Shown: one piece after another, positions 9,909 through 26,038 of the stretch
Layout: each line of letters opens with the position of its first letter
How positions within the stretch are numbered: position 1 is the first letter of the stretch
Program-made: the position numbers and the translations under genes
Source: Acetobacteraceae bacterium
GTDB taxonomy: Bacteria; Pseudomonadota; Alphaproteobacteria; Acetobacterales; Acetobacteraceae
DNA: 64,000 bases
Direction of reading: 5' to 3'
NCBI GenBank assembly: GCA_031291725.1
Contig: JARLIM010000040.1
Location: 15,071-79,070 of the forward strand
The notes under the pieces: model-generated
The model's input: the letters and a program-made list of their open reading frames with translations, nothing else
The model's database searches: none
What the model was told of the DNA's origin: nothing

Positions 9909-10165
9909 CGAGCGAGGGTGATCACTGTCTTACACTCCGGGGCTCGTGAAGACAGCCGCCACCGACAGCCGCTTTGTTGTTCGTATGCGGCGATCGCCTC
10001 GATATAGGTGCACCATGACGGCTACTGCCGAATGTCGCCGCGGCGACATTCGGGGCTTCGACAATGGCGCTGCCATAATGCTCGACGATACCGGCTTTTC
10101 CGGAAGTTGCGGCACTTGAAGCCGGTTCGCAACTGCCGTCGGTGGATTGGCCGAGCATCCGGGGG

Positions 10166-10212
10166 TTGGGTGTAAACGCGCTTTCCTATTACCCCAGCCG
10201 CAGAATTACATC
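10166..10212 (+). repeat. Core motif copy 2 (att-like)
   Basis: TTGGGTGTAAACGCGCTTTCCTATTACCCCAGCCGCAGAATTACATC, in the gap between convergent genes. An upstream hairpin GAATGTCGCCGCGGCGACATTC (10030-10051) resembles the hairpin in the 309-bp repeats. Confidence 0.55.
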
Positions 10213-10298
10213 AATGACTGTGCCGTCCGGACAATGAGACTTGCGCTGTACTGTGTGAGGCGGCTGTACGTTTGGTTATGTGATCGCTTCAATGCCCG

Positions 10299-11018
10299 TC
10301 AATAACCCCACGCCTCGTGCCGAACCGGCAGCCGGTTCAGTTGCTCACGCTCAAACTGCCACTTTGGCATAAGCCGATCCATCAGAGCGACAAACCGCGC
10401 ATTATGCGTGGGCTCCAGCAGGTGCACCATCTCATGCACCACGATGTATTCCAGGCACTCGCGCGGCTTCTTCGCGAGGTCGGTGTTGAGGCGGATGTTG
10501 CGCGCGGCGTGGCTGCAACTGCCCCACTTCGTCCGCATGCGCTGAACGAACACGCGGTTGACCGTCACGCCCAGCAGCGGTTCCCACTTGGCGATCAGCG
10601 GCTGCACTGCCTCTTTGACCCGCTCACGATACCAGCCGTCCAAGACGGCTTGCCGGGCCTCCGGGCCAGTGCCGGGGCGAACCCGCAGCACCAGACGGCG
10701 GTGCTTGAGCTCAACTGACGGCGCGGCATCTGCCTCCACCACGGTGAGCAGATAACGCTTGCCCCACACGTAGTGGCTTTCCCGATCCAGATACTCGCGC
10801 GGCGCCTCGCGTTCTTGCGCGCGCAGTTTGCTCTGCTGCTGTTTGATCCAGCCAAGTTTGGAAATCGCGAACAGCCGGATGGTGTCGACGGTCATGTGCA
10901 AAGGTGCGGCAATCCGGACGCGTCCGGCCGGGGGATAGACGCTGAGGTGGACGTTCTTGATGTCTTTGCGGACGACTTCAACGCTGATGTCGCCGAGCTC
11001 AAGCTGGGTGTGCATCAA
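10299..11018 (-). CDS. DUF45 / YgjP-like zinc metallopeptidase (HExxH)
   Basis: WGSCSHAARNIRLN...YIVVHEMVHLLEPTHNARF. Its start overlaps the hsdR stop (ATGA), and it is the last gene of the R-M operon. Confidence 0.85.
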   Translation of the reverse strand: MMHTQLELGDISVEVVRKDIKNVHLSVYPPAGRVRIAAPLHMTVDTIRLFAISKLGWIKQQQSKLRAQEREAPREYLDRESHYVWGKRYLLTVVEADAAPSVELKHRRLVLRVRPGTGPEARQAVLDGWYRERVKEAVQPLIAKWEPLLGVTVNRVFVQRMRTKWGSCSHAARNIRLNTDLAKKPRECLEYIVVHEMVHLLEPTHNARFVALMDRLMPKWQFEREQLNRLPVRHEAWGY

Positions 11019-14000
11019 TATTCCGACTGCGCCTTGATGATGAGGAAGATGCGCTCAACCTCGCCCATATCCTGCAGTACGCCATACAGCCCGGCCATCA
11101 CCACGCGCTCCTTGGCCTGCACGCCCCGCCAGCTATCCGGCCGGGTTTGCTTGATGGTCTCGTCGATCCGCAGTGCCAGCTCGGCATTCTGGCCGAGGTT
11201 GTTGTAGAGCGCACGCTGGCCGGGGGTGTGGATAGTCTCCGGCGTGTTGTCGGCCTGTCCGGCGTCCACCTTCTTGGCCAGCTCGGCGATCTTGGCCAGA
11301 TAGGCCTCGTATTCAATCGCCCGCGCCTTCCTGGCCCGGATCACCTCGTCGAGCAGCGCCGACATGGCGTCGAAGAAGGCCGGGTCGTTGAGGTGTTCCT
11401 TGATGATCTTGCTGCGGACGTTGTTTTCAATCGTCTCGGCAATCGCATCCTGATTGCCCTTCATGCCGCCGAGTTGCGTGTTGATCGCGTTGGCGATGCC
11501 GGTTTTCACGATCAGATCGATCAGGCTCATTCCATCGAAGGGCGAAATTTTCCGCGGCTCGTCGGCCTCGATATAGGTGTCGATGAGGTGGCGCATGTCG
11601 GCCTCGTAGGCCTTGAGGTCGAGCGTCTCGCCGCTCGCCTTGCGCACGATTTCGCGCACGTTGAGGTAATGCGCCATCTGGCTCTTGATGCGCGCAATGT
11701 CGCCGGAGCTGTAACCCGCCAGATCGAGTTCGTCGGCGATGTTGGCGAAGGCGCGCACCAGGGCGACGCAGGCCTTGTAGAGCGCCGTGCGCTGCGGCTC
11801 GCGTTCCTGCAATTCGGCGGCGATCTCGGTGTTGCCGCAAAAATAATGGATGTGCTCCAGCTCGCCCTGCGGCGGCTCCACCGGTTCGCACAGCAGATCG
11901 AGCGTCTCCAGCGCGGTGTCCAGGCGTTCGCGGCCCTTGGTCAGCCGGTCCTGCACCATCACCTCGGGATCGACGCCGCCGGCGGAGTGATCCAGTTCGG
12001 AGGTGTAGACCGAAATCGCGTTCTCGACCTTTTTGAAGAGGTCCTTGTAGTCGACGATGTAGCCGAAATCCTTGTCCTCGCCGTCCAGCCGGTTGGTGCG
12101 GCAGATCGCCTGGAACAGGCCGTGATCCTGCATCGACTTGTCGATGTAGAGATAGGTGCAGGGCGGCGCGTCGAAGCCGGTGAGCAGTTTGTCGACCACC
12201 ACCAGCAGCTTCATGTTGGCGGGCTCTTTGATGAAGCGGGCCTTGGCCTGTTCCTCATAGGCCTCGGTGCGGTTCATCCCCGGCCGGTCTTCAACGTCCT
12301 TCAGCAGCTCGGTGTAGGTGTTGTAGATGATCTGCTTGTCGCTCTCGGTGTTCGCCCCGGTCTCCTCCAGCGTCACGTCGCGCGCTTGCGGGTTGTAGGA
12401 GGTGATGACGGCGCATTTGCCCTTGAACGGCGTCTGCTGGAACAGCGTGAAATACCGGCACGCTTCCAGAATGCTCGACGCCACCAGGATCGCGTTCCCC
12501 CGCGAATTGGACAGGCGCGGCTTGACGCTGAAATCGAAGATGATGTCGCGCACCACGCGGTCCATCCGCGACCGTGAGCTGAGCACGTGCTGCATCGTGC
12601 CCCACTGCTTTTTCAGCTCTTCCTTCTGCCAAGAGTTCAGCCCTCCGGTCTTGGATTCAAACCACGCATCGATCTTGTCCTCGGAGCCCAGCCGCTGGTC
12701 GATGTCGCGCGCCTCGTAGATGAGGTCGAGCACCACAGCGTCCTCCACCGCCTCGCTGAATTTGTAGGTGTGGATGTAGCCGCCAAATACTTCCAGGCTC
12801 GTCGCCTTGTCCTTCTTCAGCAGCGGCGTGCCGGTGAAGCCGATGAAGACGGCGTTGGGCATCATCGCCTTCATCACCCGGTGCAGCTTGCCGCTCTGGG
12901 TGCGGTGGCATTCATCGACGAAGACGAACACCTCGCCCACCGTCGCACTCGGCTGCCCCTCCATCTCCTTGATGAAGGCCTCGAAATCGTCGACGTCCTT
13001 GCGGCCGAATTTGTGGACCAGGGAGCAGAGCAGGCGCGGCGTGGCTTGGCCGAGTTGGCGCAGCAGGTCGCGGCCGCTGCTGGTGCGCTTTATGGTCTCC
13101 CCGGCTTCGGAGAACACCCGCTCGATCTGCTTGTCCAACTCGTCGCGGTCGGTGACGATGGCGACGCGGGCGTTCGGGTTGTTCTCCAGAATCCACTTGG
13201 CGAGCAGCACCATGACGATGCTTTTGCCGCTGCCCTGGGTGTGCCAGATGATGCCGCCCTGCCGCTGGCGGACATGTTCCTGCGCCGCTTTCAGGCCGAA
13301 ATATTGATGCACGCGCGGCAGTTTTTTGATGCCGCCGTCGAACAGCACGAAATCATGCATCAGCTCGATCAGCCGGTCCTTGCGGCAGATTTTCAGCAGG
13401 TATTTGTCGAGCTTGAAGCGGCTGTTGTCGGCCTCGTCCTCTTTCCAGGTGAGGAAGTATTTCTCCTGGGTGCCGATGGCGCCGTATTTCAGGCCCTCGG
13501 AGTCATTGCCGGCGAGCACGATCTGGTTGGTGGTGAAAAACCACTGGTTGAATTCCGGCAACTGGTTGGAGCGGTTCTGCCGGATGCCGTCGCCGATGCT
13601 TTTGCGGCTGTTCTTCAGCTCCAGCACGCCGATGGCGATGCCGTTGATGTAGAGCACCAAATCGGGCCGCCGCTCAAAACCGCCCTTGAGGGTGACTTCC
13701 TCGGCGAGGGCGAACTCGTTGGCCTCGGGGTGCTGCCAATCGATCAGATGCACGGTCTCGGTGGGCTTGCCGGCCTCGGTCTTCACCGGCACGCCGTAGC
13801 GCAGCAGCGTGTAGACCGCCTGGTTGTTGGCGTAGAGCGAGCGGTTGTGGTTGCCAGCCTCGGTGCGCAGCTTGTGCAGGGCGACGGCGATCTGTGCCGT
13901 GCTGACGCCGCGGCGGCACAGCCAGGGCGAGAGCAGGCTTTCCTCGATGTTGCTGTTGTCGCGGTCGGTCCAGTCGCCGAGGAAGCGGTAGCCGAGTTCG

Positions 14001-14062
14001 TCGCGGAACAGCGCGATCACTCGGTTCTGCGTGGCGCGCTCGGGCTGGCCGATGAGGCTCAT
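11015..14062 (-). CDS. hsdR: Type I restriction enzyme R subunit
   Basis: N-terminal nuclease region (DLVLYINGIAIGVLELK). SF2 helicase motifs HTQGSGKS, VFVDECHRTQ, GFTGTP and ICRTNR. ATG at 14062 is preceded by GAGGGA. Confidence 0.92.
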   Translation of the reverse strand: MSLIGQPERATQNRVIALFRDELGYRFLGDWTDRDNSNIEESLLSPWLCRRGVSTAQIAVALHKLRTEAGNHNRSLYANNQAVYTLLRYGVPVKTEAGKPTETVHLIDWQHPEANEFALAEEVTLKGGFERRPDLVLYINGIAIGVLELKNSRKSIGDGIRQNRSNQLPEFNQWFFTTNQIVLAGNDSEGLKYGAIGTQEKYFLTWKEDEADNSRFKLDKYLLKICRKDRLIELMHDFVLFDGGIKKLPRVHQYFGLKAAQEHVRQRQGGIIWHTQGSGKSIVMVLLAKWILENNPNARVAIVTDRDELDKQIERVFSEAGETIKRTSSGRDLLRQLGQATPRLLCSLVHKFGRKDVDDFEAFIKEMEGQPSATVGEVFVFVDECHRTQSGKLHRVMKAMMPNAVFIGFTGTPLLKKDKATSLEVFGGYIHTYKFSEAVEDAVVLDLIYEARDIDQRLGSEDKIDAWFESKTGGLNSWQKEELKKQWGTMQHVLSSRSRMDRVVRDIIFDFSVKPRLSNSRGNAILVASSILEACRYFTLFQQTPFKGKCAVITSYNPQARDVTLEETGANTESDKQIIYNTYTELLKDVEDRPGMNRTEAYEEQAKARFIKEPANMKLLVVVDKLLTGFDAPPCTYLYIDKSMQDHGLFQAICRTNRLDGEDKDFGYIVDYKDLFKKVENAISVYTSELDHSAGGVDPEVMVQDRLTKGRERLDTALETLDLLCEPVEPPQGELEHIHYFCGNTEIAAELQEREPQRTALYKACVALVRAFANIADELDLAGYSSGDIARIKSQMAHYLNVREIVRKASGETLDLKAYEADMRHLIDTYIEADEPRKISPFDGMSLIDLIVKTGIANAINTQLGGMKGNQDAIAETIENNVRSKIIKEHLNDPAFFDAMSALLDEVIRARKARAIEYEAYLAKIAELAKKVDAGQADNTPETIHTPGQRALYNNLGQNAELALRIDETIKQTRPDSWRGVQAKERVVMAGLYGVLQDMGEVERIFLIIKAQSEY

Positions 14063-14064
14063 GC

Positions 14065-14514
14065 TCAATCCCTCATGCTGGATTGGTCGAGGAAGGCTTC
14101 GATGCGTCGGTTCGACCAGCGCCCCGCCTTGGCGTAAACGTATTCGTGGGCGAGGTAATTTACGATGTCGTCGTTGAAGACCGGATAATCGTCGCGCTCC
14201 TCCGGTTCTTCGCAATCCCAATCGCTGCCCTGATCGGTCTGCAACCACAAGGCTTCGCGCTCATGTTTGGGCAGTTCGGCGACATAGGCGGCCAGGAGGG
14301 AGCGGACAGTGTCGTCATATGCGCCCCAGGCGAACGATTCTTCGTATTGCACCTGAACGCAGATCTCATCCCAAACCGTCTCCAGGCCGGTGCCGTCGCC
14401 CGAGGTGGTTTCTTTGCATTGCTGCAGAGCCCGGACAATCTTGCGGGTGATGCGCTGAGCGGCATGTTCCGCGACGGCGCGAACAATCACGGTTTCGCTC
14501 AGCTTTTCCGTCAT
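14065..14514 (-). CDS. Hypothetical acidic protein (149 aa) embedded between hsdS and hsdR
   Basis: ATGA overlap with the hsdS stop, and it ends 2 nt before the hsdR start. No recognisable motif. Confidence 0.65.
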   Translation of the reverse strand: MTEKLSETVIVRAVAEHAAQRITRKIVRALQQCKETTSGDGTGLETVWDEICVQVQYEESFAWGAYDDTVRSLLAAYVAELPKHEREALWLQTDQGSDWDCEEPEERDDYPVFNDDIVNYLAHEYVYAKAGRWSNRRIEAFLDQSSMRD

Positions 14515-15635
14515 ACGAGGCGAATCCTGCCGGTGAGGAGTTCCTGCATCATGCCCTGCTTGATGGCGCGGGCTTTGGTGAGTTTCGCGTCGAGGGCGGT
14601 GAGTTCGCTATCCATGTCGGAAAGTGCAATGGCAATAGATTGCTGCTCCGCCTTCGACTCAGGTAGAGGGATTTTTACGCTTTTCATCACGTCATTCATA
14701 AGCTTGGGGTTGCCTAAGTGACGCGACACGTGACGTTTGGCGATGGTTCCCAGAACGCTTGCCACAAATGAATGGTCGTCTGAATGAAGCTTGATCGTTC
14801 CGCACACATTTGTACAGTTAAATCGACCGTTTCGATAGAATACGGTGCCAGCGTTGGCTCCATCCGTCGTCCACGTTATGTATTCTCCATCAAATGAATA
14901 TGTATCAAGGTATCCCATAACGCCATCATTCGATGTTTGTGAGGAATACACCGGATAAATCGGGTTAACCGATCGGCCAATCTCTTTGTGGTTTATGACT
15001 CTCCCGCGTCCGACTTCGGAGAGTTCTCCAATGGTTTCCAAGCGCCAATCGCTTGGGATCTTGCCAATCTCAGTTGGCTTAAATCCTGATCTGGCCCCAA
15101 ACCCCGGCAGGCGGCGCTTGCCGGTGAGGAGTTCCTGCATGGCGCCTTGTTTGATGAGGCGTTTCTTGGCGAGGAGTTGCTCCAGGGATTCGATCAGCGC
15201 ATCCGCATCACTCAACGCCTCGGCAATGGCTTCTTGTTCGGCTTTGGTGGGTGGGAAGCGGATAGATATTTCATGAAGGTCGTTTCTATTGACACCCGGC
15301 ACGCCGCTCTTGCCGCTGTGCATATGGAAATCAATTGTGCGGAGTAAACTCGCGACGAAGAGCGGGCTGTTGCCGTGAAAATCTCTGACGTAGAGCGTTG
15401 TATTGAGAGGCCAAAAATCTTCTTCAACAAAAAAGACTTGCCCGATTGTTCCATATCGGCCAGTCACAACGCCTGGAGCTTTAACTTTCGCTTCTGAGTG
15501 TCGTTCCTCAATTCCCGATGAAGTAACAATTGGAACGTCGCCCGGTTTGCGCAGACGTTTCGGGAGATCGAAGCCACGTTGAAGCGTGGCGACGTTTCCA
15601 AGAACATCAGTCTTCCATTGTCCGGCCACCGTCAA
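14511..15635 (-). CDS. hsdS: Type I R-M specificity subunit
   Basis: Two target-recognition halves, each followed by the conserved helical spacer (LLAKKRLIKQGAMQELLTGKRRLPGF and LTKARAIKQGMMQELLTGRIRL). AT-richer than the flanks. TTG start overlaps the hsdM stop. Confidence 0.9.
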   Translation of the reverse strand: MTVAGQWKTDVLGNVATLQRGFDLPKRLRKPGDVPIVTSSGIEERHSEAKVKAPGVVTGRYGTIGQVFFVEEDFWPLNTTLYVRDFHGNSPLFVASLLRTIDFHMHSGKSGVPGVNRNDLHEISIRFPPTKAEQEAIAEALSDADALIESLEQLLAKKRLIKQGAMQELLTGKRRLPGFGARSGFKPTEIGKIPSDWRLETIGELSEVGRGRVINHKEIGRSVNPIYPVYSSQTSNDGVMGYLDTYSFDGEYITWTTDGANAGTVFYRNGRFNCTNVCGTIKLHSDDHSFVASVLGTIAKRHVSRHLGNPKLMNDVMKSVKIPLPESKAEQQSIAIALSDMDSELTALDAKLTKARAIKQGMMQELLTGRIRLV

Positions 15636-18022
15636 AATCCCATCCGCGCCAAGTGTCCGTTCACTTTGGCTTCGATGTCGGCCAAGCGGGTCGCCATCTG
15701 CGGCAATGCAGTCTCATAGCGTTCGCCGAGTTCACGCACCCGCCGCGTCAACTCCTGGCTCACTCGATCCAGTTCGCCGTGCACGGCAGCCTCCAGCGCC
15801 CCCAGCCACTTGTCATCCACCGCCAACGCCTTGATCTCGGCCGTGGTCAGCTTGGGATATTTCGCGTAGGCCTTGGCGTCGAGCGCCGCCTCGGCCTCCT
15901 TGAGCTGCCGCTTCAAATCGGCTTCGTCACCGCTCAACTCTAGCCATTCCTTCAGTGCTGCGGCCTCGTCCCGCGCCTCCTTGTCGCCCCGGATTTCCCG
16001 CAGACGCGCGGCGACGTTGGCTTTGTTGATCTTCTCCAATTCGGAGAATAGCCCGTCCTCGCCGCCATGCTCTTCCTCCAACTCGACGAGCTTGGCGCTG
16101 ACGGCTTCCAGTTCGGCGGCGATGGCGTCGATGGCTTTCTGCTCCTTCGCGAAGAAGCGCGCGACGATGAGCGGCTTGGGGATCAGGTCGCAGGCCCAGC
16201 CTTTGTCCTTTTCCTTGCCCTGCTTGTTCTTCTCGATGACGCGATAGGTCTCGGCCCGCCAGCCATCGGCGGCGATCAGATAGAGATCGTCCTGCATGGT
16301 CTCGGCCCAGTAATCCATCAGGTGCTGATAGATGTCATACGGGTCGATCAGCGCGCGACCGGCATAATGGCCGAGCAGATCCTCGCCCAGTTCGGCGATC
16401 ACCTGCTTGGGGTGGCAACCCGGCGTGAGCGCCTTCAACGCGGTGGCGGCGCGTTCGCGCCAGATGGCGAAATGCGCGGCCATGCCCTCGGTGAAGCCGA
16501 CGAATTCGGGGTGCTGGTAGATCGCCGCCTTGATGGTGGATTTCTCAACCGCAAGGTCGAGATAGCCCGGCCGGTTCGGCTTGAACAATGCGGCGCGCAG
16601 GCCGGGGCAGACCTGCCAATAGGCGCTGAGCGCCTCGATATCCGCCTCGGGAATGCCGCCGCGCAGATGCGCCTCGATATCCTGGCGGTCTTCCGGGATC
16701 TGGCTGTCGATGTAGCGCGGCAAATTGAGGTTGAAGTCGTTCTTCTCGATCTCGTCGATGCCGACCACGCGCGAGTAGCGCGGCAGGGCGAGCTGCCGGG
16801 TGAAGGCGTCGACGATCTTATGGATGTCCTGATCGCGCAGCCGGTTCTTCGGGCCGTCCTTGATGAAGCCGGCGCTGGCGTCGATCATGAAGATGCCGCG
16901 CCGGGCTTGGGCGTCGTGCTTGTCGATGACGACGATGCAGGCCGGGATGCCGGTGCCGTAGAACAGATTGGCGGGCAGGCCGATGATCGCCTTGATGTAG
17001 CCGCGCTTGATCAGGTTGCGGCGGATATCGGCCTCGGCATTGCCGCGGAACAGCACGCCGTGCGGCATAATGCAGGCGCCGCGCCCGGTGCTTTTCAGCG
17101 AGCGGACGATGTGCAGCAGATAGGCGTAATCGCCCTGCTTGCCCGGCGGCGTGCCGAAAGTCTGGAAGCGCCCGTGCGGGTCGTGCAGCGGGTCGATCCC
17201 GGTGCTCCAACGCTTGTCGGAGAAGGGCGGGTTGGCGACGACGTAATCGAAGGTCTTCAGCGCATCGCCATCCTTGAATTTCGGATCGGCCAGCGTGTTG
17301 CCCTGCACGATCAAGGCGGTGGGGTTGTCGTGCAGGATCATGTTCATCCGCGCCAGACCGCTGGTGGCGGCGTCTTTCTCCTGGCCATACATCGTCACCG
17401 GCGTGCGCGCGGCGTCGGCGACCTTGAGCAGCAGCGAGCCGGAGCCGCAGGTGGGATCGTAGACCGTGGTGGCGTTGCTGGTCTCGGCCTCATGGATGCC
17501 GAGCACCTGCGCGATGATCCTGCTGACCTCGGCCGGGGTGTAGAACTGCCCCTTGCTCTTGCCGCTCTCGGTGGCGAAATGGCGCATGAGGTATTCGTAA
17601 GCGTCACCGAGGATATCGTCGCCGTCGGCGCGGTTCTTGGAGAAATCGAGCGCGGGGTTCTCGAAGATGGCGATCAGGTTGGTCAGCCGCTCGACTTTTT
17701 CTTTGCCGCTGCCGAGCTTGGCGTCTTCGTTGAAGTCGGGGAAGTCGGATAGCTGGTTGGCGTCCGCGAGCGGGGCGATGATCTTCTTGTTGATCTGATC
17801 ACCGATGTCGGGCGTGCCCTTCAGCGCCACCATGTCCTTGAATCCGGCGCCGGCCGGGATGGTGATCGGGGCGAAGGGCTGGCCGGCGTATTTGTCGCTG
17901 ACGTATTTGATGAAGAGCAGGACGAGGACGTAATCCTTGTACTGGCTGGCATCCATGCCACCGCGCAGCTCATCGCAACCCTGCCAGAGGGAGGAATAGA
18001 GCTCGGATTTCTTGATGGCCAT
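15632..18022 (-). CDS. hsdM: Type I R-M N6-adenine DNA methyltransferase subunit, long form (796 aa)
   Basis: HsdM N-terminal domain (LWQGCDELRG...YKDYVLVLLFIKYVSD). AdoMet motif VYDPTCGSGSLL and catalytic VVANPPFS. C-terminal coiled-coil-like extension. Confidence 0.92.
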   Translation of the reverse strand: MAIKKSELYSSLWQGCDELRGGMDASQYKDYVLVLLFIKYVSDKYAGQPFAPITIPAGAGFKDMVALKGTPDIGDQINKKIIAPLADANQLSDFPDFNEDAKLGSGKEKVERLTNLIAIFENPALDFSKNRADGDDILGDAYEYLMRHFATESGKSKGQFYTPAEVSRIIAQVLGIHEAETSNATTVYDPTCGSGSLLLKVADAARTPVTMYGQEKDAATSGLARMNMILHDNPTALIVQGNTLADPKFKDGDALKTFDYVVANPPFSDKRWSTGIDPLHDPHGRFQTFGTPPGKQGDYAYLLHIVRSLKSTGRGACIMPHGVLFRGNAEADIRRNLIKRGYIKAIIGLPANLFYGTGIPACIVVIDKHDAQARRGIFMIDASAGFIKDGPKNRLRDQDIHKIVDAFTRQLALPRYSRVVGIDEIEKNDFNLNLPRYIDSQIPEDRQDIEAHLRGGIPEADIEALSAYWQVCPGLRAALFKPNRPGYLDLAVEKSTIKAAIYQHPEFVGFTEGMAAHFAIWRERAATALKALTPGCHPKQVIAELGEDLLGHYAGRALIDPYDIYQHLMDYWAETMQDDLYLIAADGWRAETYRVIEKNKQGKEKDKGWACDLIPKPLIVARFFAKEQKAIDAIAAELEAVSAKLVELEEEHGGEDGLFSELEKINKANVAARLREIRGDKEARDEAAALKEWLELSGDEADLKRQLKEAEAALDAKAYAKYPKLTTAEIKALAVDDKWLGALEAAVHGELDRVSQELTRRVRELGERYETALPQMATRLADIEAKVNGHLARMGF

Positions 18023-18036
18023 CGTCAGTCCTTGCG

Positions 18037-18345
18037 TTACGGCGTCCTCACCAGCGGCGCTGGCCTCTCCCCGATAATGGCGCGGCCACGGTGCCGGGGA
18101 GCGTCAGTTTCGCGAAGTTGCTGAAGATTGCGGCATCGGACGGGGATGGCAAGGGCCAGCGGGGCGGGGAGGGCGTGACAAGGTGTGTGTGCGATGCATC
18201 CGACGGGCGAGAGCTGTTCGATTTGTCGCCACGGCGACATTTTTTCGGACTTGGGGGCCATCGGAGCGTTGGGTGTAAGCACGCCTACCTCTTACCCCAG
18301 CCGCTGAATTACACCGACGGTCGGTGACCGGCCGGGCGATGCGAC
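18037..18345 (+). repeat. 309-bp direct repeat, copy A (contains core motif copy 3 at 18269-18318)
   Basis: Aligns end to end with 25147-25455. By eye there are about 30 substitutions and two 1-nt indels, so roughly 90 percent identity. Non-coding. Confidence 0.85.
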
Positions 18346-18494
18346 ATACACAGGTCTTCGTACTTGATCACGGCCCTTGTTGGTTCGTTGTTTTATCATA
18401 CATCCGATTTGCCCTGATATTGTCGGACCCATAGCGGCTTGCGACTACCCTGGACGTTGCTCTCCTGAACCTGCCCACTCAAGGACTCCCAGAG

Positions 18495-19115
18495 ATGGCG
18501 AACAAGCTGGCTGGCCAAAGGGCCAAATACTCGAAGGCGTTTGCCGATTTCAGCAGAACCGACGACGAAGATCAGAAGATCGGGCCCATCCGTCGTATGA
18601 TGGAGGTGATCCAACAAGCGCCCGCAAACGGCTTCACCGAAGCGGAAGTGACAAATAGCAGGGATTTACCGGACGAGGTCCGCCGTTTGCTGACGCAAGG
18701 GGCAAGAGTGCCGGAAATGTCAGAGGAGGACCCGGATCAACTCGTTCGCCAACGCGACCAGATGGTTGATATCTCCGACACGCACGAAGAGGGCAATGGG
18801 GATCAGTGCGTCTATGCATACGGGTATCGCTGCGCCCCGGACCGTTTGAAGGTTGGCAGGACCGACGGTGACGTAATCGACCGTATTGCTCGGCAAATAG
18901 CGACAAGCACGCCAGAGAAGCCAAGTCTTTTCCTCGTCATTCGCACGTCAGATTCCCGTGCGCTCGAGATGGCAATGCACGGTGTCCTTCGGCTTCGGCG
19001 CATGAAGATCATCGGCGGCGGCGATGAGTGGTTTCTGACGACCCGCGACGAACTGCTGGAGATCTATAGGGCGATCAGTGGCCCGGCTGCCAATCCGTTG
19101 GTGAGCGCCCCCTGA
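18495..19115 (+). CDS. T5orf172 (GIY-YIG-like) domain protein
   Basis: C-terminal half CVYAYGY...LKVGRTDGDVIDRI...MHGVLRLRR...GDEWF fits the T5orf172/GIY-YIG-like pattern. Confidence 0.7.
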   Translation: MANKLAGQRAKYSKAFADFSRTDDEDQKIGPIRRMMEVIQQAPANGFTEAEVTNSRDLPDEVRRLLTQGARVPEMSEEDPDQLVRQRDQMVDISDTHEEGNGDQCVYAYGYRCAPDRLKVGRTDGDVIDRIARQIATSTPEKPSLFLVIRTSDSRALEMAMHGVLRLRRMKIIGGGDEWFLTTRDELLEIYRAISGPAANPLVSAP

Positions 19116-19375
19116 CCGATGGGCTGCCCGACCGGCGATTATAGAGGTCGCCGTCTCATTTGCACCCTGCAGTTCCATCAAAGCACCTAAACCAAGTGCC
19201 CGCGAAATCAGCAGCAGGCCAGTTGCCTCAATGACGGGACTGGCTGTTTTCGCGAGCGTGCAATCAACGCTAACCGCCTTCGGCATCCACCACGTTGACG
19301 GACGTGACAGGAGACTTCACCGCTACAACCTGCTAAGGCTAATTTCTCGCCGCCCTAGAGGAGCGTCGTACAGCC

Positions 19376-19900
19376 GTGTTGTACCTTCTTCATACCAGTT
19401 GGTGGGCGAGGGCGCCGATCGTCATTGCGGTAGCTGTGAGCGTCCTGGCTGCCTGCTACGGCCTGAAAAGCGGGAGCGGGAGGACGCGGACGGTCAGCGC
19501 GGGCTTCTTCGAGGGGCCGGGACTCACAAACTCAGGGGCGGTCTCCACCGTCCTCTCACTCATCCCGCTGTTGTTGTCGGCCGACGTGCGGTCGGAGCCG
19601 AAGTCGGTCTCTCTGCTCGGGGCGGCGACGCTGGTGTTCGCGCTGAGTACATTCCTGGGGCTGTGGCTCTATGGCGGCGTCGCGGCGGCCCCCCATGCGA
19701 CGGAAGGCGGTGTGATCAAGGTGACCATCCCTCGGCGCCTGATCGTGGTCCAGAACGTCATCATGTCGTGCCTGATTGTGGGTGCGGGCTGCTTCCTGGT
19801 CTTCCTGCTCGTCACGCATAGCCTTGTGCCACCAGATGCCAAGTCGAACAGCAAAGTCACTATACTGGAGTGCACCGATGACAATTGTAGACGTCGTTAA
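19376..19900 (+). CDS. Integral membrane protein (about 4 TM helices)
   Basis: GTG start. Hydrophobic segments APIVIAVAVSVLAACYGL, AVSTVLSLIPLLLSA, LLGAATLVFALSTFLGLWLYGGV and VIMSCLIVGAGCFLVFLLV. Confidence 0.55.
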   Translation: MLYLLHTSWWARAPIVIAVAVSVLAACYGLKSGSGRTRTVSAGFFEGPGLTNSGAVSTVLSLIPLLLSADVRSEPKSVSLLGAATLVFALSTFLGLWLYGGVAAAPHATEGGVIKVTIPRRLIVVQNVIMSCLIVGAGCFLVFLLVTHSLVPPDAKSNSKVTILECTDDNCRRR

Positions 19901-20291
19901 TGACATCCGGCGCGGCTGCCAACGCGGTCCGGAAGCCGAGGAGGCGGAGCGGGGCGGGGAGAAACTCGACGACCCAGACGACGCGCTGCAACTCAGTTTC
20001 GAAATGGCCATAGCCATTCAACTTGGCGGCGGGACACGCTATAACCTCCCAGAAGCGCTCGACCTCGCCGGACGAATACTTTGCCCGCTCTTCGACTACG
20101 CCAAGCCGACTCAATATCGCACTGAGATGCGGAAGATTAGACTTCAATACCGGGGAATCGCGCGCAACTTCGAACTGCAACGCGACTGGTTCACACTCAC
20201 CGAACTACTCGTGAAAAAGGGTGCCCTCACGAGCGTGGACTCCGCCGTCAAAGCGCAGATATGGAGCGAATTGGGTAGGAAAGTTGGATAG
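19878..20291 (+). CDS. Hypothetical soluble protein (137 aa)
   Basis: ATG preceded by TGGAG. Overlaps the end of the membrane-protein gene, which suggests translational coupling. Confidence 0.5.
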   Translation: MTIVDVVNDIRRGCQRGPEAEEAERGGEKLDDPDDALQLSFEMAIAIQLGGGTRYNLPEALDLAGRILCPLFDYAKPTQYRTEMRKIRLQYRGIARNFELQRDWFTLTELLVKKGALTSVDSAVKAQIWSELGRKVG

Positions 20292-20490
20292 GAATTGCTG
20301 GTCACTGCGCGAGCGCAACGCGCCACTGCGCTCCAATTCCTTGAAGACCCCGCCGCGTCTCACGGAATGCCCGGCCCGACGCTGCCGGCTGCCTTTCACC
20401 GATAGCGAACTCCCGGTTTGCAGAACTCAAGACATATGAAATCACCAAAAATCGTCGATAGGGCCTTACGTCTTGTCTATTTTGACCTGC

Positions 20491-21198
20491 TCAGAAGTTA
20501 AATGGGCTCACCCATTGCCGGAAGAAAGAATTTGGCCCTCCGAGTATACCTTGATTCGGCACGGTCTTTGCGATCGCGTTATTGGGGCCTGGACCATGTG
20601 TTATGTCATGATCTGCATTGAGGAGCTGCTGAAGTGCAGTCGCCTGCAAGCTGAGGTTCGCGGCCTTTTTCTGCTGCAAATCCTGAATCACCGCGTTCTG
20701 CCTATCGATTTCCGACTGCAGAGCGCCGTTCTTCTGAAGGGCGGCCAATGCGTCAACTTCCTTGTTATACTCTGCGTCGAGCTTCGCATAATCGTCACGC
20801 AGCGTCTGCAAGGGGCTGGGGACAGGTTCATCGGCATAGGCTGGCGCAACCAGGCTGAGCGACGTGCCGTCGTGCCCTCTCTCGCCCTTTGCAGCAACCA
20901 GATTGCCGGAGCCGAACGCAACGCAGAAGATAATCAGGGAGTTCAGCACGTAGTAAATGCCCTGGATCCACCACTTTCTCGCGCTCGCCATTACCAAAAG
21001 CCCGAACAGGAAGCTCAACGCCAGCCCGATGTAGGACGGCGGGAGGCCGAAGTTTTTTGCCAAGGTATTAGCGATCAGCATGGTTATGCCACCCGCTGCG
21101 CCAGGTGTCAGCATCGCTTCGGGAGTGAGAAACTTGTCGAGCGCGCCGCCCCCGCCCCCGCTCCCGTGGTTCGATGTTGCGCTTTCCGTTCCGCTCAT
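20491..21198 (-). CDS. Membrane protein with C-terminal coiled-coil region (235 aa)
   Basis: Strong RBS GGGAGGGG. Gly-rich N-terminus, three hydrophobic helices, then a heptad-like segment (LRDDYAKLDAEYNKEVDALAALQK...). Confidence 0.6.
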   Translation of the reverse strand: MSGTESATSNHGSGGGGGALDKFLTPEAMLTPGAAGGITMLIANTLAKNFGLPPSYIGLALSFLFGLLVMASARKWWIQGIYYVLNSLIIFCVAFGSGNLVAAKGERGHDGTSLSLVAPAYADEPVPSPLQTLRDDYAKLDAEYNKEVDALAALQKNGALQSEIDRQNAVIQDLQQKKAANLSLQATALQQLLNADHDITHGPGPNNAIAKTVPNQGILGGPNSFFRQWVSPFNF

Positions 21199-21408
21199 GG
21201 CGACCCCTCCCAGCTTGAGCGGCGATGATAGCGGCGGACAACAGCGGCGTCATCAGGCGGCTAGGCTATCCCGCTCGATCAGCGAGGAGGCTAATTGTGC
21301 AAATCTCAAGAATTTTGCGACATGCCCAGCCGAAGTCGATTGGGTATCGAACCGGGACCGTGTAACAGTCTTGAGCTGGAGAACCCGCTCCTGAGGGAGG
21401 TAAGTGCC

Positions 21409-21729
21409 GTGAGTGCAGAATCGATAGCGATGCTAAGAATCGGACAACTTCTGATCACGTCACTTTTGGGGTTTGGGAGCATATTTCTCGGATATCGGCT
21501 ATTCTCCCAGATACCAGTCACCACCACGGCCGATGGCCAATTCAAGATGCCGAATATTGGCGAGGCTAAACTAAAGGCTGGGCCTGGCCTGTTCTTCGCT
21601 TTATTCGGGGCCATCGCGATCTATTTCAGCATAGACAGAGCAATCACGATTTCTAACACGCCAGACTCATCGTTTAGCTTTGCCAACGCGCCGCCCAGTT
21701 TTCAATACTCGTGCCAGCGACGCCAGTAA
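21409..21729 (+). CDS. Small membrane protein (about 106 aa, 2 TM)
   Basis: GTG lies 9 nt after GAGGGAGG. Hydrophobic segments LLITSLLGFGSIFLGY and GLFFALFGAIAIYF. Confidence 0.45.
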   Translation: MSAESIAMLRIGQLLITSLLGFGSIFLGYRLFSQIPVTTTADGQFKMPNIGEAKLKAGPGLFFALFGAIAIYFSIDRAITISNTPDSSFSFANAPPSFQYSCQRRQ

Positions 21730-21999
21730 ACCGGCGCTTCGAGTGACTGGTGCAAAACTCACTATTTATGCAACAAAATTAGGCCGCTGATCGGATTGAG
21801 CTTTCGGGTTTCAGAAGTCCGTTGCATAATCAGAGCCTGATTTACGGCGATGCACGGCCAAATGCAGCCATGCTGCGAATGACCGATTATGACCGTCGGC
21901 ACCCGGAGGCGGGCCGGCAGGAACCCGCGTACTGCAGACTTTCGGGGGGTTGGCCGCTTCTGCATGCGACTCTGGTCCGCTATTCGACACGATCTGTGG

Positions 22000-22287
22000 C
22001 TATGCGGGCCAAATAATTTTCTGCCCGCATTTTGAGAGCGGAGTGAACCGCGTCCGGTCTGCCGGCAACTGTAGTAAGCCAGCGTGTTCCAGGGTGAAAT
22101 TGGTGTTGTGAGCAAGTATTGCATTGAGGGTGCCGAATATCTGTCCGGTAAGCAATAGAAGCTGCACCAGGGTGCGATAGGTCCCGGCCGTCGGCCACTG
22201 CTTAAGCACCCGAGCAATCTCTGGCAAAATAAGTCCTGACATATTCGAGCGTCTAGCGTACTGTCGTCGGGTAGCAGCTGCAACCAT
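22000..22287 (-). pseudogene. Possible tyrosine-integrase remnant
   Basis: The translation has LVQLLLLTGQIFGTL ... LQLPADRTRFTPLSKCGQKI. This resembles the integrase box I (LLLLTGxRxxEl) and the downstream PAeRTK...PLS segment. There is no N-terminal or catalytic C-terminal part, and the frames are broken. Confidence 0.3.
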
Positions 22288-22298
22288 AGGAAGGCAGC

Positions 22299-22535
22299 AT
22301 GCGTCGCCCGTCCGGGGACCGTACGATGTCAGTTGAATATCTCTTGGTCACCTTCAATGATGACCGCGATGTTCTCGCCGACGGCGATCGCGTGGGCGTT
22401 ACCAACCACACGATCCTCCTTCCGGCCGACGAATATAACATCACGCTCAGTGGGGATGGCTATGCGCCGCCAAGCCAAACAGTCGTCCTCGCGGGCACCT
22501 CGATCATGCGACCGAAGGTTGTCACGTTCAGCTAG
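22299..22535 (+). CDS. Small PEGA-like beta-sandwich protein (78 aa)
   Basis: ATG is preceded by GGAAGG. VTFNDDRDVLADGDRVGVTNHTILLPADEYNITLSGDGYAPPSQTVVL resembles the PEGA domain pattern. The next gene starts 2 nt after its stop. Confidence 0.5.
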   Translation: MRRPSGDRTMSVEYLLVTFNDDRDVLADGDRVGVTNHTILLPADEYNITLSGDGYAPPSQTVVLAGTSIMRPKVVTFS

Positions 22536-22536
22536 A

Positions 22537-24012
22537 TTGACCAACTGCGCGCGCGCCGCGCGGGTCTGTGTGCTTCTTGCAGCCTTCGGTCTAGGCGCCT
22601 GCACGACGGTGCCTGACTTTCCGAACGTGCCGCTCGCGGCGGGAGCGGCGAATTCACCGCCAGCGAGCCCAATCGGCACGGATCCAGAGGCGCCATTGAT
22701 CTTGATGGCATTCTCGGGCGGGGGGTCGAGAGCGGCAGCGCTTGGGCTTGGCGTGCTGAATGAATTGGCCACCGCGGCTTACCCGGCGCACGGCAAATCG
22801 GAGTCACTGATCGATCGGGTCAAGGTGGTTTCCTCGGTGTCGGGCGGCAGCGTCGTCGCTGCCTGGTTTGGCTTCGCCGGCCCTGGGCGCCTGAATGAAC
22901 TGAAGGATAATTTCCTCAAACAGGACAACATGGCGACCTTGGAATGGCAGGCAGTAAATCCGCTCACCTTGGCCCGTCTGGCATTCAGCGGCTACACCCG
23001 CATTGATGTAATGCGCGATCTGCTCGATCGCGAGCTCTTCCACGGCGCGCGCTTCGCCGCTCTTCAAAGGCCGGGCGCGCCACTTGTGGTAATGAATGCC
23101 ACCGATATGGAATCGGGAGAGGTCTTCGCCTTCACGCCACAGCGCTTCGACGATCTGTGCTCCGATTTGAATCAGTTGCCGATCTCCGTTGCGGTCTCCG
23201 CATCGGCAGCGTTTCCGGTCGCGTTGTCGCCGATGAGCTTACGCAATTACAGCTACGAAAGCTGCAAAGGTGCTATCCCGTCGCCTGGTTGGATTGACGC
23301 AGGCCTCAGTTTCCCGTTGAACCGCTACATCAACCTCGAGGAATATAAGCGCGCGCGCTATGCGAACGCCCTCCGGAACGGTAACGACGCGTATCGTAAC
23401 GAGCATTATTTGCACCTGCTCGATGGCGGGCTCGCCGACAATCAAGGAGTGCAGTCGCTGAGCGAGGTGCTGGTTTCGCCGCACAGCGCGGCGCATATCA
23501 TCCGCGGCATCAATGCCGGCCACGCGAAGCGCATCGTCGTGATCTCGGTCAACGCACGCTCTGATGCAGACAGGGATATCGGCAAGGAAGCAGCAGTTCC
23601 CGGACTGCTGAAGGTGGTGGATACCGTGATTGGCACACCGATCGATGGCACCACCGCCTATGCTAATGCCAGCCTCCAGGATTTGGTCGCCACCCTGAAG
23701 AGCGCTGGTGAAACAGCACCGCAGGCGCCTGGGCATCCGCTGTTTGCCGGCATGCGGGTCTATGGCGTTGCCATCGATTTTGACCAGTTTATGCCAGAGC
23801 AGCACAACTTGCAGAATGTTGTGAAGAACATCGGCACGACCTGGACGCTCTCGGCCGCACAGCTACAGGCGGCGATCGATGCCGGGAAGATCCTGCTGCG
23901 CCAGCATCCTTGTTACCAGCGGCTTCTACTCGACCTGAAGGCCCGGCCTGCTGCAGGCGATGAGGCCACAATCCGTAAAGGCTGTCCGTTCGCGGGGGAC
24001 GACCCTTCCTAA
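22537..24012 (+). CDS. Patatin-like phospholipase, predicted lipoprotein
   Basis: TTG start. Signal/lipobox VCVLLAAFGLGAC. Oxyanion motif FSGGGSRAA, nucleophile elbow GVSGGS region (SSVSGGSVV), and catalytic Asp motif LLDGGLADNQG. Confidence 0.85.
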   Translation: MTNCARAARVCVLLAAFGLGACTTVPDFPNVPLAAGAANSPPASPIGTDPEAPLILMAFSGGGSRAAALGLGVLNELATAAYPAHGKSESLIDRVKVVSSVSGGSVVAAWFGFAGPGRLNELKDNFLKQDNMATLEWQAVNPLTLARLAFSGYTRIDVMRDLLDRELFHGARFAALQRPGAPLVVMNATDMESGEVFAFTPQRFDDLCSDLNQLPISVAVSASAAFPVALSPMSLRNYSYESCKGAIPSPGWIDAGLSFPLNRYINLEEYKRARYANALRNGNDAYRNEHYLHLLDGGLADNQGVQSLSEVLVSPHSAAHIIRGINAGHAKRIVVISVNARSDADRDIGKEAAVPGLLKVVDTVIGTPIDGTTAYANASLQDLVATLKSAGETAPQAPGHPLFAGMRVYGVAIDFDQFMPEQHNLQNVVKNIGTTWTLSAAQLQAAIDAGKILLRQHPCYQRLLLDLKARPAAGDEATIRKGCPFAGDDPS

Positions 24013-24371
24013 TCCAAGCATCCCTAGGCAGCAGTTCAACAATGACGCCAACCGGCTTACCGCCATTCCTAGTTGCCGGCACATCAAATGTCGACCATCA
24101 AACAACAGACAGAGCACAATTCAGAATTGATACACGTGGTTTGTCGCAGGGTTCTGATGCCGATCGACGCCTTGTGTCTTTGAACTAAAACGAGGCAGAA
24201 TGGTCACTATGCGGTGTATATTCACACCTTGGGTGGATCGGTGTGGATAAGCGCCCAAGCAGGGTCCGGGATATTTTACGAATCAACTGTATATCGCCCT
24301 GATCGGCACCGCGCTACTCGCCGATTCATATGCCGGGGCCATCAGCCCGGCCGTCCCGTGTCCATTCATCG

Positions 24372-25061
24372 TTAAGATGCAAGATGTGATGCTATTCCCC
24401 AGGCTTTCTGCAGAAGTGCCCCTTCGGCCAAGCGCTGGTCCGGTAACTTGCCGAGATCTGAGTAGGGATGGCTCGTCGGCAGAATGCAAAGGGGCTTTTC
24501 TTCGAAACTGACCTGCTCTTCCTGCCCAACGTGCAACTTCGGCAGACGTAACAAATCACCCAACAACCCCGCCGGACGGCTGCCAAGCACCACGATCAGA
24601 CGGGGCAGCAGGGTGCGGATTTGGAACGCGAGGTACTCGGCGCAGAGAGAATTATAGCTTGGGTTATTCATTGGGTGCGCCAAAGCCGAACGATCGCTGC
24701 GCAGTCCCAAGTAGGCATTTGTGTAGAATCCAAGGTGCCCGGGGATTTCTGCGTGCTTGAGGCGCTGCCGTAGCCACCGCCAAGTTGGTGGATTTTCATG
24801 CAGTCTCAGTCTCTGAAAGCCTGCTAGACTACCAAAATCATTGCCAAGAAACATTATTTCACCAGAGGGAAATGCAAAGGGGCTTGGCTGCCGCAACGCC
24901 AACTGATTATCGTCCCGCCACAGGCCATCCCCACCTGGGAAAAAGCCCTGACCAGTCAGCGTGCGCGGGAACGGTTCGAGGCCTTCGGGATAAGCTCGAC
25001 CGCCAAATCGGCCTTCTGCCTCGAGGGTGGTGAGGCGGCTAAGCAAGATGCCTATAGACAT
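24372..25061 (-). CDS. Uracil-DNA glycosylase superfamily-like protein (divergent)
   Basis: The order of motifs matches the UDG fold: IMFLGNDFGS (position of GEaPG motif A), FYTNAYLGLR, C..YL..QI..LLPRLIVVLG, and TSHPYS (HPS-type motif B). Confidence 0.55.
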   Translation of the reverse strand: MSIGILLSRLTTLEAEGRFGGRAYPEGLEPFPRTLTGQGFFPGGDGLWRDDNQLALRQPSPFAFPSGEIMFLGNDFGSLAGFQRLRLHENPPTWRWLRQRLKHAEIPGHLGFYTNAYLGLRSDRSALAHPMNNPSYNSLCAEYLAFQIRTLLPRLIVVLGSRPAGLLGDLLRLPKLHVGQEEQVSFEEKPLCILPTSHPYSDLGKLPDQRLAEGALLQKAWGIASHLAS

Positions 25062-25146
25062 ATGTCCAGTTCACTTTCGTATCGGCGGCTTAGGTTGGAT
25101 GTCAGGGGTCATGTATTGTGAACGTATCACACTGCGAAAACTCCGC

Positions 25147-25455
25147 TTACGGCATCCTCGCCAGCGGCACTGGCCTCTCCACTGTAATGACGCGGCCACG
25201 GTGGCGGGGAGCGTCAATTTCGCGAAGTTGCCGAAGATTGCGGCATCGGGCGGGGATGGCAAGGACCAGCGCGGCGGGGAGGCGTCACAAGGTGTGTGTG
25301 CAATGCATCCGATTGGCGAGAGCTGTTCGATTTGTCGCCACGGCGACATTTCTGCGGACTGGGTGGCCATCGGGACGTTGGGTGTAAGCACGCCTATCTA
25401 TTACCCCTGCCGCTGAATTACACCGACGCCTGTGATCGGCCGGGCCGAGCGCGAC
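25147..25455 (+). repeat. 309-bp direct repeat, copy B (contains core motif copy 4 at 25378-25427)
   Basis: Aligns with 18037-18345. Shared landmarks are the palindrome TTCGCGAA, the hairpin TGTCGCCACGGCGACA and the core TTGGGTGTAAGCACGCCTA...GAATTACACCGAC. Confidence 0.85.
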
Positions 25456-25570
25456 CGGAACGCTATGAGCGCCGATCGCTGGCCACCCCCGATCCCCCTC
25501 TGCTCCCGGTCGTCCCGGAACGTGCCCATAGGCGCCGCTACGTCGGCCGCGCCGGCATGGGAGCAAACCG

Positions 25571-26038
25571 ATGGAAATTCAGATCGCCAAGACCGCCCAC
25601 ATCCTGTCCGCCTTCCTGCTCTGCGGCGCCGGCTTCGGCTTGGCGCTGCGCTGCTTGGCCAGCCGCGTGCCTCGCCAGATGCACGTCATGCTCATGTCGC
25701 AGAGTCAGCTTGTGCTGCTCGACTGCCTGTTCACCATGCCGGCGCTGGTGCTGCAGCCGCTGACCGGCTTCTGGCTGGCGATCGTGGCGGGCGTTCCGCT
25801 CACTGCGCCCTGGATGGAGGCGTCGCTCGCCCTCTACGCCGTGACGCTGGGCTGCAACTTCGCGGCGCTCTGGCTACAGGGCGGCATGCTCGACACCGCT
25901 GAGGCGGCGCTGCGCGGCGAGAGCGAGTTGTCCGCCCGATATCACCGGCACTATCGGGCCTGGAACATCCTGGGCTGGCCCGCCTTCGCGGCGACGCTGG
26001 CGATCACTGTACTGATGGTGGTTAGGCCGGAGTGGTGA
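25571..26038 (+). CDS. DUF2269-like integral membrane protein
   Basis: 155 aa with four hydrophobic helices. N-terminus IAKTAHILSAFLLCGAGFGLA is typical of this family. Confidence 0.65.
   Translation: MEIQIAKTAHILSAFLLCGAGFGLALRCLASRVPRQMHVMLMSQSQLVLLDCLFTMPALVLQPLTGFWLAIVAGVPLTAPWMEASLALYAVTLGCNFAALWLQGGMLDTAEAALRGESELSARYHRHYRAWNILGWPAFAATLAITVLMVVRPEW

Follow-up and report, generated by a model that had tools for sequence, protein, structure and literature searches.

What are the two 309-bp direct repeats that bracket a 7.1-kb gene cassette in the DNA of an Acetobacteraceae bacterium, and is the cassette a mobile unit in its own right? The repeats lie in a window (the whole stretch of DNA that was analysed) of 64,000 nt, positions 15,071-79,070 of the forward strand of contig JARLIM010000040.1 (assembly GCA_031291725.1), and the original prediction had taken them for the ends of an independently integrating or excisable unit containing a decayed integrase. 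We found that the cassette is part of an array at 1800-25433, in which four direct copies of an attachment (att) core cut a 24-kb defence island into three modules of 7-8 kb. We propose, with a probability of about 0.62, that this array arose by tandem accretion, in which cargo modules bounded by att sites and devoid of an integrase were added beside a pipolin (a mobile element that encodes its own DNA polymerase), the 309-bp repeats being hybrid attachment sites. The two repeat copies are composed as follows.

18037-18345, plus strand: repeat copy A, consisting of an arm (18037-18248) and att core copy 3 (18249-18326).
25147-25455, plus strand: repeat copy B, consisting of an arm (25147-25357) and att core copy 4 (25358-25433).

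BLASTN aligned 18037-18337 with 25147-25445 at 89.7% identity over 301 nt (E 2e-112), with 29 mismatches and two one-nucleotide gaps, and a repeat search of the window returned the pair as two blocks of 90% identity with spacings of 7109 and 7110, confirming the direct orientation, the identity of roughly 90% and the two 1-nt indels that had been read by eye. The predicted limits held as far as 18337 and 25445 and failed for the last 8-10 nt, the terminal stretch to 18345 and 25455 being identical at only 6 of 11 positions. The divergence was even, since 200 of 222 columns were identical in the arm (90.1%) and 69 of 78 in the core (88.5%), and the longest exact run was 37 nt.

The repeats had also been described as non-coding, and this agreed with our results. 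No intact reading frame is common to copies A and B, the frames being shifted by the indels (alignment columns 135 and 283); the 309-nt unit had no match in Pfam, and in Rfam none at the gathering score and none at E<=1; and a search of 1.84 billion representative proteins found no real homologue, returning only two repetitive surface proteins. On the lack of a Pfam match and of genuine homologues, the repeat is not part of a conserved chromosomal gene. The caveat is that the substitutions between A and B are 3-periodic, with 18 of the 29 in one phase (chi-square P 0.0045, post hoc), and that a plus-strand frame open in copy B only (25191-25763) has 15 synonymous and 9 non-synonymous codon differences; no domain or homologue was found for this frame.

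The pair is real but not isolated. The 3'-terminal ~75 nt of the repeat correspond to a conserved core, of which the window has four direct copies, all of them on the plus strand.

1800-1873, plus strand: att core copy 1 (nhmmer E 3.8e-20), with a 44-nt block at 1823-1866.
10146-10222, plus strand: att core copy 2 (nhmmer E 4.4e-22), with a 44-nt block at 10169-10212.
18249-18326, plus strand: att core copy 3, with a 44-nt block at 18272-18315.
25358-25433, plus strand: att core copy 4, with a 44-nt block at 25381-25424.

When the unit was compared with the window by BLASTN, its 3'-terminal 60-87 nt also matched 10156-10240 and 1814-1873 on the same strand, and an nhmmer model of the core recovered the four copies with E-values of 4e-20 to 4e-22 and start-to-start spacings of 8346, 8103 and 7109 nt. 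The invariant part supplied a 22-nt pattern, TTACCCCNGCCGNNGAATTACA, which had exactly four occurrences in the 64-kb window (at 1843, 10189, 18292 and 25401), all on the plus strand within 1.8-25.4 kb, the chance expectation being none. A dispersed intergenic repeat of the REP or MITE families was rejected, since the copies number only four and are confined to 25 kb, the other 39 kb having none. Likewise rejected were a structured RNA or riboswitch, with no Rfam match and none of 94 predicted pairs showing a compensatory change (two sequences only), and the 3'-end of a conserved gene, the frame through the core that reads 'LPQPxNYT' being closed in most copies and having no Pfam match.

The ends of the 44-nt block are inverted heptamers, GGTGTAA and TTACACC, in cores 1, 3 and 4, and core 2 has TTACATC in place of TTACACC. 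In the pipolin of Rhodovastum atsumiense described below the heptamers are GGTGTCA and TGACACC, both sides being altered and the complementarity kept. TACCCC and AATTACA-C were invariant in an alignment of 11 core sequences, and these positions are kept in cores 3 and 4. The paired heptamers are compatible with a protein-binding or hairpin-forming recombination site.

Outside the core the four copies are less alike. A left arm of ~210 nt is common to copies 3 and 4 only, copies 1 and 2 share a different, weaker arm, and the left arm of core 1 (~190 nt, 1608-1799) is conserved in the relatives L010 and L012. The original prediction had considered the repeat to be well above the usual length of an att duplication. 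It is in fact made of an att core of ~75 nt plus ~210 nt of one shared arm, and its 309 nt are not unusual for an att site, because an arm plus core entering a resident site with the same arm would duplicate both; the Rhodovastum repeats are alike in this. A small hairpin, TGTCGCC-ACG-GGCGACA, was seen to the left of cores 2, 3 and 4 (10031-10050, 18224-18239 and 25333-25348) and in the related locus L008 (6633-6650). Its distance to the core varies (about 95 nt vs about 10 nt), and it is followed by a T-run in copy A only, where it is terminator-like on the plus strand.

The module delimited by cores 1 and 2 contains the following genes.

1963-2217, minus strand: excisionase-like HTH_17 gene, 84 aa (PF12728, E 1.2e-10).
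2214-3602, minus strand: tyrosine integrase, 462 aa, of P4/DUF4102 type with the arm-binding domain Arm-DNA-bind_3 (PF00589, E 3.9e-24; PF13356, E 5.8e-19).
3538-6609, minus strand: family-B DNA polymerase of piPolB type, about 1000 aa (PF03175, E 7.7e-8).
6619-7335 and 7211-8323, minus strand: two genes without Pfam match that accompany the polymerase in relatives.
8466-9908, plus strand: 480-aa gene of low G+C (0.53) that precedes core 2 and is absent from L008.

Core 1 and the stop of the excisionase-like gene are separated by 89 nt, and the integrase and the polymerase then follow. The excisionase-like gene overlaps the integrase stop codon and shares 41% identity with its positional counterpart in Rhodovastum. 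For the polymerase, identity to the 'putative Primer-independent DNA polymerase PolB' of R. atsumiense is 57%, with 91% coverage; no solved structure related to it by sequence was found, and tblastn against plasmids gave matches on those of Pseudosulfitobacter, a genus named for plasmid pipolins in part of PMC11551731. The passages of the same source that define the class give the piPolB-type family-B DNA polymerase as the sole hallmark of pipolins, a recombinase and flanking att-like direct repeats being common and not obligatory (PMC11551731). The left module was assigned to the pipolins because its piPolB-type gene is accompanied by a recombinase and bracketed by att-like direct repeats, and its predicted gene content (excisionase-like gene, P4-type integrase, piPolB-type polymerase and accessory genes) is that of a minimal pipolin. 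Concerning the accessory genes, 6619-8323 has homologous DNA in L008 and similarly sized genes at the corresponding position in loci L013, L016 and L030, and 8466-9908 had no match in Pfam, NCBIfam or PADLOC.

The two remaining modules carry cargo.

10299-18022, minus strand: module 2, with a YgjP-like metallopeptidase and the type I restriction-modification proteins HsdR, HsdS and HsdM (Pfam).
18495-25061, both strands: module 3, the predicted 7.1-kb cassette, with T5orf172/MUG113, several small unknown genes, PEGA-like, patatin and UDG-like genes.

The modules of the array measure 7.1-8.3 kb and have 4 to 12 genes each, on both strands. Modules 2 and 3, which flank copy A, differ in composition. 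The divergence of the repeats had been attributed to an old duplication or to different donors, and the evenness of the ~10% divergence, together with the unlike composition of the flanked modules, makes different donors probable.

No recombinase was found in modules 2 or 3 (for 18346-25146 by Pfam, tblastn and hhalign). The open reading frame at 22000-22287, predicted to be a decayed integrase, had no Pfam match at E<=10 and no BLASTP similarity to the integrase of the window, and hhalign, run with a profile built from eight integrases of the pipolin lineage, gave a probability of 0.1%. When the integrase at 2214-3602 was used as a tblastn query against the window, no other integrase-like sequence appeared; the integrase and excisionase-like pair (1963-3602), about 15 kb to the left of the cassette, includes the sole integrase in this part of the window. 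From its bounding by direct repeats that resemble recombination sites, the cassette is still plausibly an excisable unit. It does not stand alone, being one of the three modules that att copies delimit in an array centred on the pipolin, and it has no detectable integrase remnant. For annotation this means that the 7.1-kb cassette is better described as pipolin cargo than as a separate decayed element.

As to the other genes claimed for the cassette, T5orf172/MUG113 and patatin were recovered, the PEGA-like gene gave a weak match only (E 6.7e-5), and the UDG-like gene (24372-25061, minus strand) gave three weak but concordant matches to residues 138-203. The latter belongs to a large unnamed family (>190 clusters), in which some of the >190 proteins have PF03167. 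Its closest relative with a long context, 68% identical, sits in a phage tail module as a lone rightward gene between the tape-measure and other tail-module genes, in a phage present in >20 contigs (L025-L029), and resembles a moron. We also considered the UDG-like gene as a lineage-conserved end of the pipolin and rejected this, since it has no significant similarity to the UDG-like gene of locus L024. A plasmid or phage origin of the segment was rejected: a plasmid search matched a generic hsdM only, and two pattern scans of viral contigs were empty.

Comparison with relatives involves the right flank of the array.

25482-26038, plus strand: right flank, consisting of an upstream region of ~90 nt and a DUF2269 membrane-protein gene (25571-26038; PF10027, E 6.8e-40).

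Collections of species-representative genomes and of metagenomes were scanned once each with a single exact core pattern, which gave two related contigs of one metagenome-assembled genome (MAG) in the former and four related contigs in the latter. The prediction had proposed that relatives be compared for presence or absence of exactly the 7.1-kb unit. At strain level (99.4-100% identity, several samples) all contigs had both repeat copies in the same arrangement; exact-protein look-ups of DUF2269 and of the UDG-like gene likewise returned this arrangement only, and a look-up of HsdM returned no record. A contig of 7132 nt (L019) was considered as an excised circle and rejected, because its termini are shared 30-mers, as a break in a de Bruijn assembly graph would leave. 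In the more distant L008 and L016 a single core joins the integrase-polymerase module to the DUF2269 flank, and the restriction module and the cassette are not between them. L008, about 88% identical, has the integrase, polymerase and accessory genes, a core, the ~90-nt region with a truncated DUF2269, the hairpin, core 2 and YgjP, that is, the modules of the window reordered as pipolin, core, truncated DUF2269, core 2 and restriction module. L016 has the integrase, the polymerase, two genes, a core, DUF2269 and a different restriction system.

Other relatives connect the core with the integrase. In L010 and L012 core 1 appears with its left arm, the excisionase-like gene and the integrase, the homology ending at 1608; the left flank of L010 beyond that position matched no compared sequence. 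In L005 and L007, which belong to one MAG, a 3' half-core lies upstream of an integrase gene of 69% identity, at a distance of 10 nt. In four loci the polymerase-distal end of the integrase-polymerase module bears a core (L008 and L016) or a 3' half-core (L013 and L030), the half-core of L013 facing housekeeping genes. The core was absent from L021, L024, L031 and L022, which keep the DUF2269 flank and have a more distant integrase or none. The core thus travels with the integrase-polymerase lineage and not with the flank, because the loci that have a DUF2269 flank and no close integrase have no core. The integrase and excisionase-like pair adjoins core 1 and is predicted to be its cognate. 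L030 also has outer direct repeats of 75 nt (15-89 and 18619-18693, 89% identical, 18.6 kb apart), with the polymerase, the integrase and the internal half-core between them; their sequence is unrelated to the core.

What precedes the DUF2269 flank is a core in L008 and L016 and unrelated DNA in L021, L024 and L031. The breakpoint recurs at ~25482, just to the left of the ~90-nt region and DUF2269, this region being conserved in five other loci, each of which has unrelated (mobile) DNA directly to its left, and it may be an insertion hot spot for several kinds of element. L022 is a pipolin-free scaffold in which DUF2269, with homology only from about codon 15, lies about 1.4 kb after a tRNA-Arg(ACG) and next to leuB; none of the flank genes of L022 (leuB, tRNA-Arg, PRC, SRAP) was found in the window. 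Two DUF2269 copies were seen in L024 and in the contig of L021. The arm of the repeat was considered as a relic of DUF2269, and this was rejected, as tblastn and blastn found no second DUF2269 copy in the window.

A parallel arrangement was found in the isolate Rhodovastum atsumiense (OW485601.1, 5154328-5177339; positions below refer to this segment). It has three direct core-like sites (6188-6243, 15857-15901 and 20702-20745), two of which terminate direct repeats of ~300 nt made of core plus arm (15587-15882 and 20467-20727, 87-95% identical). These repeats surround a cargo of 4.8 kb with BrxR-like and TerB-like genes, two unknown genes and an N-terminal fragment of an integrase. The Rhodovastum pipolin resembles that of the window in its polymerase, integrase and excisionase lineage, in its homologous core with inverted heptamers and in its ~300-nt repeats around a few kilobases of cargo. 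It differs in having the extra module on the integrase side rather than on the polymerase-distal side, in having the arm on the other side of the core, and in that its cargo keeps an integrase fragment.

From these arrangements we infer the following order of events. Each cargo module would have arrived, or been exchanged, as a circle bearing an arm and a core, which would have recombined with a resident site bearing the same kind of arm. The crossover could have been mediated by the integrase at the core, or could have occurred by homologous recombination anywhere in the ~300 nt; whichever enzyme acted, the whole ~300-nt unit would have been duplicated, and the 10% divergence would represent the difference between donor and recipient. 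The pipolin integrase and excisionase could recombine any pair of cores, and the possible excisions would be of the cassette alone (7.1 kb), of the restriction module alone or of the whole 23.6-kb array. The cargo modules would then behave like cis-mobilisable elements (CIMEs) mobilised in trans. The CIME and accretion model has been described (PMC5704250), tandem accretion has already been suggested for pipolins in part of PMC11551731, and pipolins are reported to carry att-like direct repeats, recombinases and defence cargo in the relevant passages of PMC11551731 and PMC9710591.

Several observations weigh against this proposal. Among the assembled contigs we found no excision product, empty site, circular form or other content between A and B, nor an exact empty site with a single 309-nt unit. 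The 30 nt between the inverted heptamers are wider than a canonical tyrosine-recombinase core. The arms are unlike across the four cores, so that conserved arm-type integrase sites are not evident. The 3-periodic substitutions hint at a coding past of the unit, which the accretion model leaves unexplained. L030 has its separate outer 75-nt repeats. Finally, there are defence genes to the left of core 1, and a tRNA or tmRNA target was rejected, since none was found in the window or in loci L008, L013, L014 (the Rhodovastum segment), L016 and L030. Integration at the 3'-end of a tRNA or tmRNA is given as typical of gammaproteobacterial pipolins, and is not treated as defining, in the passages of PMC11551731 on integration sites.

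An origin driven by homology only, in which a circle or a second pipolin with a shared ~300-nt junction unit was joined by RecA (Campbell-type insertion or unequal exchange), seems unlikely. The cores would then be passive passengers, and present-day loss of the cassette would proceed via RecA only. The even ~10% divergence over arm and core, with the core not more sharply conserved, the exact runs of up to 37 nt and the arms that are not conserved across all four sites would all be explained in this way. What such an origin does not account for is that the core is conserved across lineages with unrelated flanks, where it tracks the integrase type, and that the heptamers co-vary in Rhodovastum; in addition, a divergence of 10% strongly lowers homologous recombination. 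It differs from the accretion model solely in the enzyme making the crossover.

It is improbable that the unit is an expression element (a leftward promoter or leader for hsdM and the UDG-like gene), a small reading frame or an RNA, duplicated for its own sake. Copy A does start 15 nt from the ATG of hsdM and copy B 86 nt from that of the UDG-like gene, both of which are leftward genes, but the core also occurs at sites 1 and 2, where no leftward gene is adjacent, and no sigma-70-like promoter was found in either copy. The terminator-like hairpin on the plus strand of copy A and the 3-periodic substitutions, with their excess of synonymous differences in one plus-strand frame, would agree with a transcribed or translated unit; against this, the frame is broken in copy A and closed in the other cores, the Pfam and protein searches gave no genuine relative, and the Rfam search and the pairs compared (two sequences only) gave neither a match nor a compensatory change. 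Lastly, an autonomous integrative element with its own decayed integrase at 22000-22287 is very improbable, as Pfam, BLASTP, tblastn and hhalign all speak against that identity; in its favour, the 'LLLLTGQ'-like stretch of the 95-aa translation recalls tyrosine recombinases by eye, as an impression only.

Cargo-like genes were also observed on both sides of the array. To the left of core 1, an ATPase gene (168-1379, plus strand) was matched by the PADLOC profile of the candidate defence family HEC-04 (E 1.7e-157), with an alignment that starts only at profile position 90, its N-terminus being missing or lying before position 168. Given the G+C of 0.52-0.56 at 168-1379, this side of core 1 may hold another module. 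Directly after DUF2269, the segment 26046-28803 (minus strand) contains paired PIN_3 and HTH_17 genes and encodes an FRG-domain protein of 533 aa that matches the PADLOC candidate family PDC-S15; defence or addiction cargo is therefore present outside the att array too. Further to the right are Fic, glycosyltransferases and an AIDA-type adhesin, the latter encoded at 39589-46137 (plus strand; 2182 aa, with an AIDA-type autotransporter stalk domain) between the glycosyltransferase cluster and chromosomal transport genes, and ordinary chromosomal genes begin at about 46 kb.

Under tandem accretion of att-bounded cargo, the locus bears on how pipolins gain and lose genes. Recent work describes pipolins as platforms of two parts in which defence systems are kept and exchanged, the route of the cargo swap not being known. 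Cargo that is subdivided by additional att cores of the element itself, as in the window and in the isolate R. atsumiense, represents a concrete, testable route of gain and loss. A further step, which we put forward tentatively and consider doubtful, would be that, in this alphaproteobacterial pipolin lineage, any module bounded by two cores leaves as a circle and enters another pipolin at a core, the integrase-excisionase pair and the 44-nt core serving as a cassette system for multi-gene defence modules. If this were true, internal att sites would be the physical mechanism of the defence-cargo exchange reported for pipolins, and the system would be integron-like, although built on a P4-type integrase and handling operon sets of 5-8 kb. 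Both the class of element and the process of accretion were known before. The novelty lies in the lineage, an alphaproteobacterial pipolin whose integrase is of the P4 type with an HTH_17 partner and whose core is not a tRNA site, as well as in defence cargo that is clearly subdivided by internal att sites, an arrangement that recurs in a cultured species.

Among known systems, integrons also have an array of cassettes in the same orientation between recombination sites, with the recombinase at one end. The integrase of the window, in contrast, is not of the integron (IntI) type, scoring 44.7 bits with TIGR02249 of NCBIfam (cut-off 265) and 28.4 with PRK15417 (cut-off 435), the modules are multi-gene units of 7-8 kb with their own gene orientations instead of short, mostly single-ORF (open reading frame) cassettes, and the sites are not imperfect palindromes of the attC type. 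Tandem accretions and CIMEs, such as those of the ICESt1/ICESt3 family and others (PMC5704250), are closer: they too consist of recombinase-less segments between direct att sites, beside an element that encodes the cognate integrase (here predicted), with several alternative excision products predicted. The partner in the window is a pipolin and not a conjugative element, excision is predicted only, and the shared sequence includes ~210 nt of one arm besides the core.

The pipolins themselves, as presented in parts of PMC11551731, PMC9710591 and PMC7385651, are the nearest comparison. The window differs from them in the absence of a tRNA or tmRNA at the att site, in the four att copies that subdivide the cargo, and in the P4/DUF4102 integrase with an HTH_17 partner, whereas the alphaproteobacterial pipolins described in part of PMC11551731 have large serine recombinases (at the yifB site), IntP2 or IntTn916. 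It shares with them a polymerase whose nearest named relative is annotated as a primer-independent PolB, a tyrosine recombinase next to it, att-like repeats in direct orientation on either side of the polymerase, a layout of a small core of genes plus variable cargo, and a cargo rich in defence genes (type I restriction-modification, UDG-like proteins and ATPases).

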